Positions 1 through 8,961 of a DNA stretch of 64,000 nt are shown here, piece by piece (positions within the stretch are counted from its first letter, which is position 1; each line of letters begins with the position of its first letter). The notes below the pieces were generated by a model. The model was not told the DNA's origin and searched no databases. It worked only from the letters and a program-made list of their open reading frames with translations. The DNA is taken from assembly GCF_044647545.1 (NCBI RefSeq), contig NZ_CP172818.1; one strand, given 5' to 3'. A program made the position numbers and the translations under genes. This DNA is from Escherichia coli (lineage in GTDB: Bacteria; Pseudomonadota; Gammaproteobacteria; Enterobacterales; Enterobacteriaceae).

Positions 1-579
1 TCTTGCTTCTTCACATTGTACCCATAAGAAAGGGTAGAAAGTGAAGGCTTCCGTTGCCGATAATTTTATTACGTCTTCTTGCCATTGCGGCCAGCGTACA
101 TTTTCATAGAAGGTATCTAAATCACCGGATAATGCCCACTGAAGAAACTCAGAATATCCAACCTCCAGACTTTCCCAATTCAGCGTATCTGGCGCAAAAT
201 AATAAACGCAGCCAGTATCTTCCCCAAGATCGCCACCATTAAGAGCAAAAATTCCCCCTGCGACATCATCGGCGATGGGTAAAGCCCGCACGCTTGCGAA
301 TTCAGGGCGTTGTGTCCAACTTGCTGGATCTCGTGGTAACCGGGGGTGACCAGAGCCTGCTATGCGTAACCAACCGTTATCAATCAGCAGACCTCCGGAG
401 CCATAGACAAGCGCACCCATCGGTGATTTTGTTGTAACCTGTAATTGATAAAGTGCGGTTTCGGCTAAATCTTTATTAACCGGTAAGAGTTCGGCATGGT
501 TTGTGGCTTCTTTTAACCAATTCTGGATTATTGGCCAGGCTGAATCTTCAGTATTTACTAACTGACTCACTTCACGCAT
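1..579 (-). CDS. Hypothetical protein, possibly DUF2625 family (ybfG-like); partial, runs off the window start
   Basis: Reverse-strand ATG at 577-579 preceded by an AGGAG Shine-Dalgarno; open for 193 codons to position 1 (MREVSQLVNTEDSAWPIIQNWLKEA...). Family assignment is from memory only. Confidence 0.55.
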   Translation of the reverse strand, partial: MREVSQLVNTEDSAWPIIQNWLKEATNHAELLPVNKDLAETALYQLQVTTKSPMGALVYGSGGLLIDNGWLRIAGSGHPRLPRDPASWTQRPEFASVRALPIADDVAGGIFALNGGDLGEDTGCVYYFAPDTLNWESLEVGYSEFLQWALSGDLDTFYENVRWPQWQEDVIKLSATEAFTFYPFLWVQCEEAR

Positions 580-702: not shown

Positions 703-845
703 TCAAAGCATAAACCGATACCCAATACCGGCTTCAGTAATGAAATGGCGGGGCGGACGAGATCCTGTTCCAGTTTTTGTCGCAAATGCCTCATATAATT
801 ACGCAAATAGTTGCTGTGTTCGACCGCGTTTGGACCCTACACCTG
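703..845 (-). pseudogene. Degenerate fragment of a kdpE-like response-regulator 3' end (winged-helix C-terminus)
   Basis: About 90% nucleotide identity to the kdpE 3' end at 5038-5180, same orientation; would encode ...LEQDLVRPRHFITEAGIGYRFML* but carries an in-frame TAG and a 1-bp indel. I recall a similar fragment annotated as ybfI in K-12, unverified. Confidence 0.6.
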
Positions 846-885
846 CCGGATGCGGCATAAATAACGAACTCTTTGTCAACAAACA

Positions 886-918
886 GAAAGGGCGATCATT
901 CAATCGCCCTTTTTTATT
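886..918. terminator. Hairpin flanked by A- and T-tracts just downstream of potE; possible bidirectional intrinsic terminator
   Basis: gggcgat-cattca-atcgccc at about 890-911, followed by ttttttat on the plus strand and preceded by an A-rich run. Confidence 0.45.
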
Positions 919-927
919 TCGCTTTTT

Positions 928-2247
928 TTAACCGTGTTTATTTTTCAGTTCAAAGCGTGGAGATACCAGACCATACAGTGTCCAACCAAGGAAGGTCACG
1001 ATGGAACCGTACAGCATGGCTTCTTCCCCGGATGAGTACAGCGCATAGAAACTGTACATCGCACCAACAAAGGCAACAAAGTTTGCTACTTTCGCTTTTG
1101 ATGGTGGCACATTGGCGACCTGCTGAATAATGACTAACGCCGCCATCGACAGAATATACGGGATGATATTGGTCACAACGGCCAGGTTAACCAGCACGTT
1201 GAACTGACTGTTCAGCGACGGGCTAATGGTCATCAGTGATAATCCGCTCTGGATGATGACAATGGTCAGCATTCCCTGTACTGGTGCATCGACTTTGCTC
1301 ACACGGGAGAAAATTTTCGGGAAGTACCCTTCATCGGCAGAAGATTTAAACACCTGGGCAATGGTGAACTGCCAGCCAAGCAGCGAACCGCAGCAGGACA
1401 TCACCATCAGCGCCATAATGACTTTACCCACTCCCGGCGTGAACATCTGTGCGAAGGCCAGGCCAAATGGTGCCGTTGAATTTGCCAGCTCCATATTTGG
1501 CACAATCCCGGCAATCACGTTGGTGGAGACGATATAAATCACCGCCGCACCTAACGTACCGCCAAGAACTGCAATCGGCACGTTACGTTCCGGGTTTTCA
1601 ACTACTTCGGCGTTGGCACAGGCAGACTCCAGACCGAGGAAAGCCCACAATGTCATGGCGATGGAGGAACCTACAGCGCTAAAGAACGGTACATGATGAG
1701 GGTTCCATGAGTTAGCGTACAGCGTCGGGCTAAACCAGAACCAGCCGATAATGCACAGACCGACGACCGGAATAATGACCCCCCACACAGTAATGCTACT
1801 GATTTGCCCGGTAATGCGCGCACCACCAAAGTTAGCCACGGTACAAATCCACAGCACTCCGATGGTCGCAAGACCAATCTGCACTGGCGACAAACTCGCG
1901 CCGAGCAGTTCGGTGCCGTAACCAACCGCCGAAATAGCAATCGCGACGTTAGCAATCAGCAGCGAGACACCGTAGGTGTAGTTCGCCATAAAGTTCCCTG
2001 ATTTACCGAAAGCATACTCCGCATAACCGCCCATACCGCCTGATTTACGGCTGAACATGCCGCATTTTGCGAATGCCCATGCCAGCGCCATTGAGCCTAC
2101 GGCTGTCACCAGCCAGGAGATAATTGAGATTGTCCCAACTTCGGCAAGCTTTGTCGGCAGCATGATGATACCGGAGCCCATCATGTTGACCATCGTCAGT
2201 ATGGTTAACTGAACGACGCCCATCTTGTTCGATTTAGCCTGACTCAT
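928..2247 (-). CDS. potE: Putrescine-ornithine antiporter
   Basis: ORF-track protein matches PotE from MSQAKSNKMGVVQLT onward; 439 aa when started at the internal Met; 4-bp overlap with speF. Confidence 0.95.
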   Translation of the reverse strand: MSQAKSNKMGVVQLTILTMVNMMGSGIIMLPTKLAEVGTISIISWLVTAVGSMALAWAFAKCGMFSRKSGGMGGYAEYAFGKSGNFMANYTYGVSLLIANVAIAISAVGYGTELLGASLSPVQIGLATIGVLWICTVANFGGARITGQISSITVWGVIIPVVGLCIIGWFWFSPTLYANSWNPHHVPFFSAVGSSIAMTLWAFLGLESACANAEVVENPERNVPIAVLGGTLGAAVIYIVSTNVIAGIVPNMELANSTAPFGLAFAQMFTPGVGKVIMALMVMSCCGSLLGWQFTIAQVFKSSADEGYFPKIFSRVSKVDAPVQGMLTIVIIQSGLSLMTISPSLNSQFNVLVNLAVVTNIIPYILSMAALVIIQQVANVPPSKAKVANFVAFVGAMYSFYALYSSGEEAMLYGSIVTFLGWTLYGLVSPRFELKNKHG

Positions 2248-4442
2248 AATTTTTCCCCTTTCAGCAGGGTGCTTTGCGCACCACGAGGCTTGATGACATA
2301 GCACCAAACTTGCTTACGACCATCATGTTCTTCGATATAGACACCCTGAAGCTCCGGTGCAAAACCTGGCAGCAGGTTGATCCCTTCTTCCAGAGCGCTG
2401 AAGTAACGCAGAACAGCACCACCCCAGATTTCACCCGGAACAACACACAGCACTCCCGGAGGATAAGGAAGCGCACCTTCTGCAGCGATACGGCCTTCTG
2501 CATCCGGCAGACGAACCAGCTCCACTTCACCGCGTAAATAGGCGTAGTTGGCTTCTTGTGGATTCATGCTGACACGTGGGAAGTGTTCCTTACGAAACAT
2601 CTCTTTTTGCAGTTGTTTCACGTTGTGACGGGCATACAAATCATGCATTTCCTGACACAACTGACGCAGGGTATAACCGGTGTAGCGCTCTTCATGCTGT
2701 TTGTAGATGGAAGGCAGTACTTCTGATAATGGCGCGTCGGACTCAAGCAGTTTTTCGAAGCGTACCAGCAGAGCAGCAAGTTGCTGAAGTTTGGCCATAT
2801 CTTCTGCCGGAGTCAGCAGAAAGAGGATGGAGTTAAGATCGCATTTTTCCGGCACTACGCCATTTTCGCGCAGGAAGTTAGCAAGAATCGTCGCGGGTAC
2901 ACCGAACGCTTCATATTCGCCGTTACGTGCATCAATACCTGGGGTTGTCAGCAACAGTTTGCACGGATCGACAAAGTATTGATTCTCTGCATAGCCTTCA
3001 AAAGAATGCCAGTGCTCACCTGGTACAAACTGGAAGAAGCGCAGATCAACCGCAATTTGCGCTGTTTCATACGACTGCCAGGGTTTACCATCCACCAGTT
3101 CAGGTACGAATGGACGAATATGCTGACAGTTATCGAGGATCAGTTTGCGGGCATTAATGCCATTTACCACACAATCCATCCACATATTACGACCGCTGAC
3201 ACCTTCATGCATTTTGGCGTTGATATCCAGTGCGGCAAACAGCGGATAGAACGGGCTGGTGGAGGCATGCATCATAAAGGCGTTGTTCATGCGTTTGTGC
3301 GGTACATAACGCTGTTGCCCTTTGATATGGCTGTCTTTTTTATGGATTTGTGAAGTCTGGGAAAAACCAGCCTGCTGTTTATGCACAGATTGCGTAACCA
3401 GAATACCCGGATCGTTCTCATTTAGATCCAGTAACAGCGGTGAACAGTCCGCCATCATCGGGATAAACTGCTCATAGCCGACCCATGCGGAGTCAAAGAG
3501 GATGTAGTCACACAGATGACCCATTTTATCCACCACCTGACGGGCGTTATAAATCGTACCGTCGTAAGTGCCTAGCTGAATAACGGCGAGGCGGAAAGGA
3601 CGCGCCTCTTTTGCCCGCTGCGGTGCGACTTCTGTAATCAGTTCGCGCAGGTAATTTTCTTCGAAGCAGTGGGCATCAATACCACCGATAAAGCCATACG
3701 GGTTGCGTGCGGTTTCCAGATAAACTGGTGTTGCGCCAGCCTGTAGCAACGCTCCGTGGTGATTAGATTTATGGTTATTACGGTCAAACAGCACCAGATC
3801 CCCCGGTGTTAACAGGGCGTTTAAAACCACTTTGTTAGAAGATGAAGTGCCATTTAGAACGAAGTATGTTTTATCGGCATTAAACACTTTTGCCGCATGT
3901 TGCTGTGCAATGCATGGCGCGCCTTCGTGAATCAGCAGATCGCCCATTGCCACATCCGCGTTGCACAAGTCAGCACGGAACAGCGCCTCACCAAAGTATT
4001 CCACAAACTGATTCCCCGCCGGATGGCGACGGAAAAATTCGCCGCCCTGATGACCGGGGCAATCAAACGCGCTGTTACCCTGATTGACATAATCGACCAG
4101 TGCGCGGAAGAAGGGCGGGCGCAGTTGAGTTTCATAATGGCTGGCTGCGGTTTCTAACTGACGACCATAAAATTCTCGTCGCGATTCGCAATTCTCAAAG
4201 ACACCCGAAATACGGGGCAAATACTCTGCGGGTACACGTTCTTGATTTTCAGTAGCAATAAATACCGGGATGCCATAACCCGTGGCATCGATTTCATCGA
4301 GTTTTCCGCGTGTAACATCGTTGAGCGATAAAACTATTGCCGCCACATCGATATTACTGTTTTCATTAATATAGATACATTCTCGCTGCGTGGTAAAACA
4401 GTCCGGGCAAGAATCACTAACCGCAATTTTTAATTTTGACAT
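2244..4442 (-). CDS. speF: Inducible ornithine decarboxylase
   Basis: ORF-track protein matches SpeF from MSKLKIAVSDSCPDC onward; 732 aa when started at the internal Met. Confidence 0.95.
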   Translation of the reverse strand: MSKLKIAVSDSCPDCFTTQRECIYINENSNIDVAAIVLSLNDVTRGKLDEIDATGYGIPVFIATENQERVPAEYLPRISGVFENCESRREFYGRQLETAASHYETQLRPPFFRALVDYVNQGNSAFDCPGHQGGEFFRRHPAGNQFVEYFGEALFRADLCNADVAMGDLLIHEGAPCIAQQHAAKVFNADKTYFVLNGTSSSNKVVLNALLTPGDLVLFDRNNHKSNHHGALLQAGATPVYLETARNPYGFIGGIDAHCFEENYLRELITEVAPQRAKEARPFRLAVIQLGTYDGTIYNARQVVDKMGHLCDYILFDSAWVGYEQFIPMMADCSPLLLDLNENDPGILVTQSVHKQQAGFSQTSQIHKKDSHIKGQQRYVPHKRMNNAFMMHASTSPFYPLFAALDINAKMHEGVSGRNMWMDCVVNGINARKLILDNCQHIRPFVPELVDGKPWQSYETAQIAVDLRFFQFVPGEHWHSFEGYAENQYFVDPCKLLLTTPGIDARNGEYEAFGVPATILANFLRENGVVPEKCDLNSILFLLTPAEDMAKLQQLAALLVRFEKLLESDAPLSEVLPSIYKQHEERYTGYTLRQLCQEMHDLYARHNVKQLQKEMFRKEHFPRVSMNPQEANYAYLRGEVELVRLPDAEGRIAAEGALPYPPGVLCVVPGEIWGGAVLRYFSALEEGINLLPGFAPELQGVYIEEHDGRKQVWCYVIKPRGAQSTLLKGEKL

Positions 4443-4699
4443 TTTCCAACTCTTTATTTTTGGTAATAGCAGGTCCTCAATTTCTCGAATGAGAAATCGA
4501 TCGTGCCGGAAAAAAAGCAAAGTTACCCCGCTGATAAATTAATCAGAAGTTTGCTTTTTTCAGAATGCAGAAACCCTTATCAGTCCGGTGGCTGATAATA
4601 CAAGGGTTAACAGAGAATGAGCACTGCGGAATACAGGCATATGCCTGTAATACAGAGAGTCAGGAAGACCTGTACGCTGAAGTGCCCTTAGTCGGTAGA

Positions 4700-4804
4700 C
4701 TAACGGGCATTGAAGAAGTGAAAGTCGAAGCTATTGCGATGAGCAAACTTCATAATATGAGTTGTCCGCCTTATATGGGGCATAGTGCGGCTGTTATTTT
4801 CCAT
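4700..4804 (-). CDS. speFL: speF leader/arrest peptide, 34 aa (ornithine-sensing)
   Basis: Direct translation of the reverse strand gives MENNSRTMPHIRRTTHIMKFAHRNSFDFHFFNAR*; not in the ORF track because it is under 60 aa. Confidence 0.8.
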   Translation of the reverse strand: MENNSRTMPHIRRTTHIMKFAHRNSFDFHFFNAR

Positions 4805-4970
4805 TTAATTTACCTTTCCTGATGTGAATGAAGGTGAAGGTATTCTATCCAGGAAATACGGTTGAACTGTGAAGGTGATCAATAAAAAATGATCAATCTT
4901 AATTTATTTAATGATGAGCTTTTTACTCAGTAATATAAAATATTGAATTGTTATTTTTGTGTGTTGTTTA

Positions 4971-5002
4971 AGATAAAAAGCCGTATTTATTATTACGGCT
5001 TT
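4971..5002 (-). terminator. Intrinsic terminator downstream of kdpE
   Basis: Hairpin agccgta...tacggct followed by a T-tract on the reverse strand. Confidence 0.5.
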
Positions 5003-5037
5003 AATTAATAAAAGGCAGGATGTATTAAAATTAATAT

Positions 5038-5715
5038 TCAAAGCATAAACCGATACCCAATACCGGTTTCAGTAATGAAATGGCGGGGGCGAGCGGGATC
5101 CTGTTCCAGTTTTTGTCGCAGATGTCCCATATAAATACGCAAATAATGGCTGTGTTCGACCGCGTTTGGCCCCCACACCTGGTTAAGGAGCTGGCGCTGG
5201 GTGAGCACTTTTCCGGCATTGTTGAGCAGCACCGCCAGCAGGCGAAACTCAATCGGGGTGAGATGCACCTCTTCCTCACCGCGATGGATCACGCGGGCGG
5301 CTAAATCGACGGTCACATCGGAAAATTTCACCAGCGGATCGGGCGCGGTGGTGGCGGAGTGGCGGCGTAAAGCGACGCGCAGACGGGCCTGCAATTCGCC
5401 AATACCAAATGGCTTACTCAGGTAATCATCCGCTCCGGCATCCAGCGCGGCGATTTTGTCGCTCTCTTCGCTACGTGCGGAAAGCACAATTACGGGCACC
5501 GCGCTCCACTGGCGCAGGTCGCGGATAAACTCAATCCCATCGCCATCGGGCAGGCCGAGATCGAGAATAATCAAATCTGGTTTACGGGTTGCCGCTTCCA
5601 GCAAGCCCCGTTGTAGCGTTTCGGCTTCAAAGACGCGCATACCGTCGCCCTCCAGCGCTGTGCGCAGAAAGCGACGAATAGCTTGTTCATCTTCAACAAT
5701 CAGAACGTTTGTCAC
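5038..5715 (-). CDS. kdpE: Two-component response regulator KdpE
   Basis: 225-aa ORF with receiver and winged-helix domains, immediately downstream of and overlapping kdpD. Confidence 0.95.
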   Translation of the reverse strand: MTNVLIVEDEQAIRRFLRTALEGDGMRVFEAETLQRGLLEAATRKPDLIILDLGLPDGDGIEFIRDLRQWSAVPVIVLSARSEESDKIAALDAGADDYLSKPFGIGELQARLRVALRRHSATTAPDPLVKFSDVTVDLAARVIHRGEEEVHLTPIEFRLLAVLLNNAGKVLTQRQLLNQVWGPNAVEHSHYLRIYMGHLRQKLEQDPARPRHFITETGIGYRFML

Positions 5716-8396
5716 ATATCCTCATGAAATTCTTCAAGTTCAGGAGCGGTTTGCTGGGGAAGTGTAACACGAAAACAGGCACCGCCTTCCGGTCGGTTGA
5801 ACGCGGTAATGGTGCCGCCGTGTACATCCACAATCGCCCGACAAATTGCCAGCCCAAGCCCGACGCCCGGCACTGCCGACTCTTTATTCCCGCGGGCAAA
5901 CTTATCGAATATCGTCTGCTCCTGGCCTGGCGGAAGACCGGGGCCGTTATCCCAGACATCCAGTTGTAGATTTTCGCCCTCAACGTGGGCATCGATACCA
6001 ATTTCGGCCTGCGCACCCGCGTATTTCACCGCGTTTTCCAGCAGATTAATCAGCACCCGTTCAAAGAGTGGCCCATCAACGTGGATTAAGGTCAGCGGTT
6101 CTGGCAAAGACAGGTTGATGGGCGATGATAATCCCGGTTCCAGCATTTGCAGCGCGCTGCCGACCACTTCTTCCAGCGTTAACCACTCTTTCTTCAAATT
6201 AAAGCCGCCGGACTGAATTCGCGCCATATCCAGTAGATTATTCACCAGTCGGGTCGTGTTCAGCACATGCTGGCGAATCTCGCTGGCCTGGCGGGCGTGG
6301 GGCGATCCTTCGCTTGCCAGATCGAGCGTTAAGATTTCGGCCTGACCGAACAGCACCGTAAGCGGCGTGCGTAAATCATGCGAAAGTGCCGCCAGCAGGG
6401 CGTTGCGGATCTGTTCACGTTCGCTTGCCATCCGCGCCTGTTCTTCGCTGGCGGTCAGTGTCAGCCGCTCAAGCGCATTGGCGACTAACAGCGTAAACGT
6501 CTCCAGCAGGCGTTGCTGTTCCGGGATCATCAACTGGCGCAGATTCCCCGGTTCCACCACCACCAGCCCGTAGGTTTTCTCGCCGCTTTTTAGCGGCAAA
6601 ATCTGGTACGGTACACCGGGTAACGTGTCGGTGCCCGCGCCCGCAGGCAGGCCTTTATCAAAACTCCACTGCGCGATGGCATCGTCCCACGGCGTCATTC
6701 CTTGCGGATGTGTTAACGGCTGCAATTTACCGTTGTCATCAGGCAGCAACACCTGGCTACGGGCATGAAACGTGGAGGCAATAAACTGTTCGCTGGTGGC
6801 GGCGATATCCTGCGAACTACGGCCCACAGCCAGAGCTTTGGACATTTCATATAAGTGCCGTGTGCGTTGTTCGCGGTAACGGGCTACCCGCGCCTGATAA
6901 CGCACGCCAGCAGTAAGGTTCCCGATCACCAGCCCGACGGTTAACATCACCGCGAAGGTCAGCAGATATTGCACATCAGAGACGGCGAGCGTGCCGCGTG
7001 GGGCGATAAAAAAGAGATCGAAACTCACCACATTAATGACGGTGGCAACCACCGAAGGCCAGCGTCCGTAAAATAGTGCCACCACCACGACGCCAAGCAG
7101 ATACAGCATCACCAGGTTGGCGGCATCAAACGCCATCAGCCACTGCATGGCAATTAAGGTGATAACGGCGCATAACGCGGCGGCAACCACGCATCCCTGA
7201 ATCTGTACCCGCCACTTGTCTTTAAAAGAGCGGCTATCCGGCGCGTTGTTAATCGTGCGGGCGGGTGGTTCATCAAGCGCGACCAGCACCTGATCGAGAT
7301 CGGGGGCGATTCGCGCCAGTCGGTCAGCAAACGTTTCCCGACGCCACCAGCGGCGCGAGGCCGGGCGACCGAGAATAATCTTGCCGAGATTATGTTCACG
7401 GGCATAACGCACTACCGCTTTCTCTTCCGCTGGATCAGAAAGTGTTGCCGTCTCCGCGCCCAGCTCCTGCGCCAGACGTAAGGCGCTGAGAATTGCCCGA
7501 CGTTTTTTCTCCGGTAAGCGATGCAGGGCAGGGGTTTCAACATACACCGCGTGCCAGACACTACCCAGGCGCGAGGCCAACCGCGCCGCCGCGCGGACCA
7601 GTTTCTCACTGCCGGTGTTATGCCCGATGCATAAAAGGATCGCGTCGCGTGTGTGCCAGACTTTCTCTTCGCCAGGATGCCCCCGCCAGGCGCGCATTTG
7701 CTCATCAACGCGATCGGCAGTACGGCGCAGTGCCAGTTCGCGCAGGGCGATCAGATTGCCTTTGCGGAAAAAATGTTCAATGGCGCGCTCCGCCTGCCCG
7801 GCAATATAGACTTTGCCTTCTTTCAGCCGCTGGCGCAGATCGTCCGGGGGCAAGTCCACCAGTACTACGTCGTCGGCGGCATCAAAAAAAGGATCGGGCA
7901 CGGTCTCCCGTACCTGAATTCCGGTGACGCCGCTGACCACATCATTCAGACTTTCCAGATGCTGAACGTTGACGGTAGTGAAAACATCAATGCCAGCTTC
8001 CAGCAGCTCTTCGATGTCCTGCCAGCGTTTAGGATGACGTGAACCTGGCGCATTACTGTGCGCCAGTTCGTCCATTAAGATCAGTGCCGGACGGCGGGCG
8101 AGGGCGGCATCGAGATCAAACTCGCTGATGTGCCGCCCACGGTACGCCTGGCGTTTTAACGGCAGAACAGCCAGACCTTTCAGCATGGCGGCGGTATCTT
8201 TCCGACCGTGGGTTTCTACCACGCCAACCACAATATCCAGCCCTTGCGCCCGCAGTCGCTGGGCTTCCGCCAGCATCGCCCAGGTCTTCCCGACGCCTGC
8301 GCAGGCACCGAAGAATACTTTCAGCTTCCCCCGATGCGGCGCGGCAGCTTGTTCCAGCAGACGATCGGGGTCGGGACGTAAGGGTTCGTTATTCAT
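5712..8396 (-). CDS. kdpD: Sensor histidine kinase KdpD
   Basis: 894 aa from [16 protein letters not shown]; the ORF track has 11 extra N-terminal codons. Confidence 0.95.
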
Positions 8397-8961
8397 CAAG
8401 CTTATCCAGTGCCAGATTGAGTTCGACAATGTTGACGACCGGCTGGCCGATATAGTTCACCAGCGGTTGTTGGCTGTATTTTGCGATCAGTTGCGTGAGC
8501 TGTTCAACGCTGAGATTACGCGCTTTCGCCACGCGTGGGATCTGCCAGGCCGCCGCTTGCGGGGTGATGTTATTGTCCAGCCCGCTTGCCGACGCCGTCA
8601 CCAGTTCAACCGGAACGCTCGTGCTGGCGTCCGGGTTAGCGGCCCGTAATGCGGCAACGCGTGCGGCTATCTGTTTATCCAGCTCCGGGTTACTGACTGC
8701 CAGATTGCTCCCGCCAGAAGCCTGTGGATTATAGGGCATTTCTGCTGTTGCCGACGGGCGACCATGAAAATAGCCGTTGCCGGTAAAATTTTGCCCGATT
8801 AATGCCGAACCGCGCACCGTATCACCTTCACGAATCAATGAACCGTTGGCCTGCCAGGGAAACCACCATTGCCCCAGTGCGGTGGTCAGCAGCGGGTAAA
8901 CGCCGCCAGTAATCAATAACAGAAAGAGAAATGTCGATAATGCCGGACGTAATCCACTCAT
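8389..8961 (-). CDS. kdpC: K+-transporting ATPase subunit C
   Basis: 190 aa from [15 protein letters not shown]; overlaps the kdpD start. Confidence 0.9.

Follow-up and report, generated by a model that had tools for sequence, protein, structure and literature searches.

The short copy of the kdpE 3′ end at positions 702-845 of the DNA analyzed here, a 64,000-nt stretch of the Escherichia coli contig NZ_CP172818.1 (the window), probably marks the join-point of an old illegitimate, REP-associated recombination in the slot between kdpE and pgm. The feature itself is already known: it is the annotated E. coli pseudogene ybfI, listed as b4636 between ybfG and potE in the MG1655 RefSeq record NC_000913.3. 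K-12 curation lists ybfI as a pseudogene homologous to KdpE. A search of the accessible literature found no paper on E. coli ybfI or its origin, and none linking speF, potE, kdpE and pgm.

Both kdpE copies are located on the minus strand and therefore form direct repeats. Local alignment of 702-845 with 5037-5181, the 3′ end of intact kdpE (5038-5715), revealed 132 identical positions in 145 columns (91%) with a single 1-nt gap, the score being 223. Against 200 segments of 4.5 kb drawn at random from the window, the fragment scored 27 at most. Chance similarity was thus excluded, and the precise pairwise alignment bore out the degenerate direct copy with an in-frame stop and an indel that had been reported in a preliminary description of this DNA. 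A repeat search split this pair into a block of 52 nt (98%) and one of 96 nt (89%). The fragment comprises the last 143 nt of kdpE and 1 nt beyond the stop codon; it spans the last 47 codons only, start and N-terminus being absent. Translated in the kdpE frame, it reads Q-V followed by a stop (TGG to TAG), and the frame is then shifted by a 1-nt deletion. PGAP labels the short copy as a 'winged helix-turn-helix' pseudogene, 'incomplete, missing N-terminus', here with a frameshift; in K-12 BW25113, it is likewise an incomplete winged helix-turn-helix pseudogene.

On the minus strand, the order of the locus is ybfG, a 122-nt spacer, the short kdpE copy, a terminator, potE, speF, speFL, kdpE and kdpD. 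The gene ybfG is cut by the window edge and only its 5′ part (DUF2625) is contained at 1-579. The adjoining spacer (580-701) showed no homology to any kdpE-downstream sequence elsewhere. According to the ORF list and the annotation, potE covers 928-2247 and speF 2244-4442, followed by the speF leader region (4443-5037) with speFL at 4700-4804, which is of the 'type a' allele. That the kdpE repeats bracket exactly speFL, speF and potE was confirmed, as the 4.19 kb between them harbor no other annotated gene. Within the bracketed DNA, neither the annotation nor the ORF list disclosed a gene for an integrase, transposase or other recombinase. Positions 560-960 match E. coli FDAARGOS_497 at 100% identity, and the record of this strain was used as locus L001 (L001 coordinate = window coordinate + 5441).

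The position of the fragment is orthologous to that of MG1655 ybfI, and its flanks and breakpoint match the K-12 locus (L002, BW25113). Three fragment alleles, those of the window, K-12 and GPEC1185, have a common breakpoint, the in-frame TAG and five derived substitutions, which argues for a single founding event; the 1-nt deletion is an additional change of the window allele. Pairwise divergence among these alleles reaches about 8%, similar to the surrounding island (window and K-12 alleles are 92% identical), so that the founding event must be old. Identity of the fragment is highest to E. coli kdpE (90-92%), followed by other Escherichia (85-90%), and falls to 83-84% or less for the nearest Citrobacter locus, with lower values elsewhere. 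Judged by these identities, the fragment is a genuine paralog of a kdpE 3′ end of the Escherichia type and, as part of the explanation favored here, probably a non-functional relic of such an end. A functional small gene or RNA at this position was considered and rejected, since the disabling mutations differ among the alleles. Rfam yielded only a sub-threshold MicX match on the terminator (26 bits vs a gathering score of 75), and a promoter scan performed no better than on shuffled sequences. Strain-specific gene conversion between the fragment and kdpE was not indicated either, as the few informative sites showed no co-variation.

The sequence next to the inner end of the fragment points to an involvement of REP elements. 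A REP remnant (CCGGATGCGGC) together with about 32 nt (DR2, 845-888) is identical at 38 of 44 positions to the REP1 arm plus ybfP leader (DR1). The DR1 copy lies to the left of the window at 4772-4815 of L001, 1.5 kb from the inner end of the fragment, and the REP/DR pattern of 845-888 is unique in the window. Because CCGGATGCGGC directly abuts the inner end of the kdpE fragment, a REP sequence is situated at the novel junction. The other partner of the join, an internal kdpE site broken between AAC and CAGGTG, has no REP similarity, and at this kdpE position (-143) no clear microhomology beyond 1 nt was detected. The REP remnant does not agree base for base with the REP1 arm, its central 4 nt being inverted, and an extra step such as a deletion in the hairpin interior or a template switch is needed for this inversion. 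Terminator T2, downstream of potE (885-914), duplicates T1, the hairpin located behind pgm. The loop of T2 is of the E. albertii type, while the T1-type loop occurs in all four E. coli short alleles inspected (see below). The complete order of what we call the long allele is pgm-T1-REP2-REP1-DR1-ybfP-ybfG-spacer-'kdpE(143 nt)-REP remnant-DR2-T2-potE-speF-speFL-kdpE. It contains three nested pairs of direct repeats: the kdpE ends (143 nt, 91%), the REP/DR sequences (44 nt, 86%) and the terminator hairpins (roughly 30 nt). The allele looks like two tandem units, kdpE end - ybfG-ybfP - DR - REP and kdpE end - speF module - T2 - DR - REP.

A census of 5426 complete E. coli genomes, in which alleles were counted by megablast coverage thresholds, revealed the long allele with its ybfG-fragment-potE junction in 1826 genomes, all of them carrying the ybfP-ybfG island along with the fragment. 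The short allele, consisting of pgm, one terminator and potE with a 56-nt gap and possessing neither island nor fragment, was found in 3164 genomes. In total, speF-potE is present in about 5039 genomes, whatever the allele, and absent in about 387-390. The latter have one kdpE end and fall into a ybfP-only class (pgm-T1-BIME-DR-ybfP-BIME'-kdpE, 247 genomes) and a BIME-only class (kdpE-BIME-T1-pgm). We put the BIME-only class at about 140 genomes and not at the 290 obtained with the junction query, because this figure overlaps the ybfP class and only about 387 genomes are devoid of speF-potE. Other variants at the locus are IS1 or IS200 derivatives. No genome without speF-potE was found to carry both kdpE copies, so that neither of the refuting outcomes named in the preliminary description came about. 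In E. coli, the interval between kdpE and pgm exists in at least six structural forms and holds several BIMEs, which makes it a REP-rich recombination hotspot.

For other species, 80 kdpE loci of Enterobacterales were compared including 10-kb flanks, in a set that contained no Salmonella, E. fergusonii, E. marmotae or Shigella. The usual arrangement is kdpE convergent with pgm-seqA, and in 30 of the 80 loci (Citrobacter, Enterobacter, Kluyvera, Lelliottia, Leclercia, Atlantibacter, Cedecea, E. albertii and others) speFL-speF-potE is located between the two. A second kdpE fragment was detected in none of the 80 loci. Since the module occupies the same slot in 30 loci without any kdpE duplication, its presence there is far older and wider than the fragment. 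The assumption that the repeat records the original arrival of the module was thus not upheld, the module being free of the fragment in these loci as well as in 3164 E. coli genomes. What can be retained of the proposed insertion into, or next to, an ancestral kdpE 3′ end is that the structure implies a recombination by which the module and an intact kdpE came to lie beside a displaced kdpE 3′ end. The BIME-only arrangement also exists in E. whittamii and in the lineage L004, both of which are without the module. As for the island, ybfG and ybfP were absent within 10 kb of kdpE in the 80 loci of other species; both genes were found only in E. coli loci, and YbfP is essentially restricted to E. 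coli. The nearest relatives of YbfG are about 55% identical and reside in unrelated contexts; outside E. coli, none exceeds about 57%, exceptions being two short unplaced contigs (75% and 86%). Both ybfP and ybfG look horizontally acquired. Two further loci (L101, L102) that came up in the tracing of a ybfG/ybfP donor were merely frameshift-ridden assemblies of ordinary long alleles.

Recombination between the members of each repeat pair predicts three deletion products, and all three are present in natural genomes. The product of kdpE and the fragment, ybfG beside intact kdpE without the module, was found in two genomes (CUWW10 and GF4-3). These are the only module-less genomes in which a single kdpE borders on the left flank ybfG, an arrangement that had been envisaged as the ancestral state; normally, kdpE of such genomes adjoins a BIME and pgm, or ybfP. 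The kdpE-kdpD region of CUWW10 is 100% identical to K-12, and its island is 99.2% identical to many long-allele genomes over query positions 1-1667. The about 13 mismatches are roughly the number expected within the 144-nt kdpE/fragment stretch. CUWW10 would thus most simply be the result of a recent deletion between the kdpE repeats, the site of crossover lying within about 19 nt of their end. A crossover deeper in the repeat would import the amino-acid changes of the fragment. The product of DR1 and DR2, pgm-T1-BIME-DR-T2-potE, also exists in two genomes (R32_14_1F and N96). They possess private substitutions and a type b leader and are either old derivatives or relics. The T1/T2 product is represented by the short allele of CREC-544, in which a terminator of the T1 sequence continues into the flank of T2. 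The module of this allele agrees with that of the window at 100% over 3628-5031 and at 93-100% elsewhere; on these values, the CREC-544 allele is a derivative of a long allele resembling that of the window. Such deletion events are rare because the repeats are short and diverged, with the exception of the terminator-level product, which is the commonest allele.

The favored explanation starts from the observation that the contents of the slot alternate among E. coli genomes, being a BIME alone, ybfP, ybfP-ybfG or speFL-speF-potE. The long allele would then consist of two slot contents in tandem, each with its own kdpE end and its own REP/DR sequence and terminator. The simplest event would be either the join of a tandem duplication or unequal crossing-over of two chromosomes that differed in the contents of the slot, by which position -143 of kdpE in an arrangement kdpE-ybfG-ybfP-DR-REP1 became linked to the REP1 edge in an arrangement kdpE-speF-potE-T2-DR-REP1. 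The displaced kdpE end would subsequently have decayed neutrally, and the three nested repeats would now serve as substrates for deletions leading to the loss either of speF-potE or of ybfP-ybfG and the fragment. Both proposed parental arrangements are known only as very rare alleles, in two genomes each, and the long allele may in turn have been the source of these.

The leader sequences have a bearing on the alternatives. The leader/speFL region of the long allele is of type a, a type counted in 1706 genomes; it shares no more than 65-80% identity with type b and has its nearest relatives in Citrobacter. The divergence between the types extends to the kdpE stop codon, and identity calculated in 300-nt windows begins to fall within speF, near window position 3900. 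In long alleles, the 3′ end of intact kdpE has the ordinary sequence of E. coli, the divergence beginning at the stop codon. The stop context of the fragment is TGA+A, as in module-linked kdpE. The divergence of the type a leader and its affinity to Citrobacter suggest an import. This would suit a scenario in which speFL-speF-potE, equipped with a kdpE 3′ end of its own, was inserted into a kdpE-ybfG-ybfP-pgm chromosome by Campbell-type or homology-facilitated illegitimate recombination, comparable to e14 in icd, the native end becoming the fragment. The predicted 'empty' arrangement exists in two genomes, the loop of T2 looks foreign, being of the E. albertii type and not of the T1 type of the four short alleles, and the close relatives of E. 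coli, E. whittamii and L004, do not possess the module. We nevertheless regard this scenario as rather doubtful. The bracketed DNA encodes no recombinase, intact kdpE is of the ordinary E. coli kind up to its stop codon, and no account is given of the 44-nt REP/DR copy that separates T2 from the fragment. Moreover, the 'empty' CUWW10 matches long alleles in the island and K-12 in kdpE-kdpD, as anticipated for a recent deletion, and the many E. coli genomes and the 30 loci of other species that have the module without the fragment also argue against it. To some degree, the insertion merges with the favored recombination, because both describe one crossover, seen from different parents. A tentative extension, which we likewise consider rather doubtful, is that an E. 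coli ancestor lacking speF-potE, like E. whittamii and L004, regained the module horizontally into a locus with ybfP or ybfP-ybfG. The long allele would then be a fossil of this re-acquisition, the short allele the outcome of a secondary terminator deletion, and the two leader types would reflect two imports.

A tandem duplication from REP1 to position -143 of kdpE in a module-bearing chromosome, with later replacement of the promoter-distal module by ybfP-ybfG, would account for the duplicated REP/DR sequence, the duplicated kdpE end and the join-point in one step. REPs have been reported as join-points of tandem duplications, and the TGA+A of the fragment agrees with that of module-linked kdpE. 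However, the replacement would need both ends to fall exactly at the module boundaries, and we judge such a course of events improbable. The stop codon does not discriminate here. Its use as a marker of the kdpE source of the fragment (TGA being shared by the fragment and module-linked kdpE, as opposed to the TAG of module-less alleles) had to be dropped, since TGA/TAG is polymorphic in module-less alleles too, the module-less L100 having TGA. Slightly less credible still is that a foreign donor having ybfG downstream of kdpE supplied the fragment, already formed, along with the ybfP-ybfG island. The strict association of fragment and island in long alleles and the apparently horizontal acquisition of ybfP and ybfG would fit such an origin, which is opposed by the fact that the fragment resembles most closely the kdpE gene of E. 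coli itself, whereas relatives of YbfG outside E. coli are distant. None of the 80 loci of other species has ybfG or ybfP near kdpE, and in the 247 genomes of the ybfP-only class, ybfP alone adjoins intact kdpE.

The favored recombination offers an origin for an annotated but unexplained pseudogene of K-12. The repeats on either side of ybfP-ybfG and of speF-potE, a module for acid stress and putrescine, can also bring about the deletion of these genes, a point to bear in mind when strains are compared or the locus is engineered. No new mobile element or mechanism is revealed, and the importance of the finding is mostly housekeeping. Compared to K-12 ybfI, the fragment of the window has the same locus, breakpoints and orientation without any structural difference. 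A displaced gene 3′ end left by an integrative element is exemplified by icdC beside the prophage e14 in icd. The locus described here bears a superficial resemblance to it, showing a short, degenerate 3′ end separated by a block of DNA from the intact gene in direct orientation. By contrast, the 4.2-kb block contains no integrase, att core or mobile element, and most carriers of the block do not have the repeat. A site-specific integrative element with att duplication was therefore rejected, there being no recombinase and the repeat missing in 30 loci and 3164 module-bearing genomes. REP/BIME rearrangements are more similar in that a REP arm is found at the junction, the duplication is REP-adjacent and several BIMEs are present; the difference is that a REP forms just one side of the join, the opposite side being a site within kdpE. 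With direct-repeat-mediated deletion polymorphisms, the locus has in common that genomes exist for each of the three repeat-to-repeat deletions. The mechanism is hence best read as belonging to an ordinary class, a REP-associated illegitimate join followed by repeat-mediated deletions.

The speF leader region of E. coli exists in two deeply divergent versions, designated type a and type b, which share only 65-80% identity. The divergent region (window about 3900-5037) comprises the 5′ end of speF, speFL and the spacer between kdpE and speFL, and the kdpE stop codon marks its limit. Type a was detected in the present window, in K-12 and altogether in 1706 of the 5426 complete E. coli genomes, and type b in JJ1886 and O157:H7. 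The closest relatives of type a were found in Citrobacter (80-85%), those of type b in E. albertii (84%). The SpeFL peptides encoded by the two types differ by just two residues.

Divergence was also observed in potE (window 928-1827). Compared in 300-nt windows, this gene is only 88-95% identical to its counterparts in K-12, O157 and JJ1886, while these three are 97-100% identical among themselves. This pattern suggests mosaic recombination within the speF-potE module. On the hairpin of the potE terminator, Rfam reported a weak match to MicX (window 857-924), whose 26 bits lie below the gathering score of 75; this match is most likely spurious.

A further E. coli allele, present in 247 genomes, contains neither ybfG nor speF-potE and harbors ybfP alone between pgm and an intact kdpE, with REP1 copies on both sides. 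Another E. coli assembly carries a divergent ybfP-only allele, in which the ybfP region shows about 85% nucleotide identity. The coordinates recorded for these ybfP-only alleles are 2787-3760 in kdpE locus L097 and 7815-8760 in the module-less locus L100. Individual E. coli genomes revealed IS1-mediated deletions with one end at ybfG or ybfP and the other in the module or kdpD, or an IS200 element inserted in the pgm-ybfP interval (loci L084, L091, L098 and L085). In the strain studied here, ybfG (DUF2625; window 1-579) is intact and encodes 216 aa; the K-12 copy (L002 5370-6020) contains an internal stop and is a pseudogene.

Pseudocitrobacter faecalis possesses speF without potE ahead of pgm (L024 3251-5404). 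In Klebsiella indica, potE is reduced to its last 28 codons, immediately after kdpE (L018 10668-10751), and this remnant is a relic of module loss.
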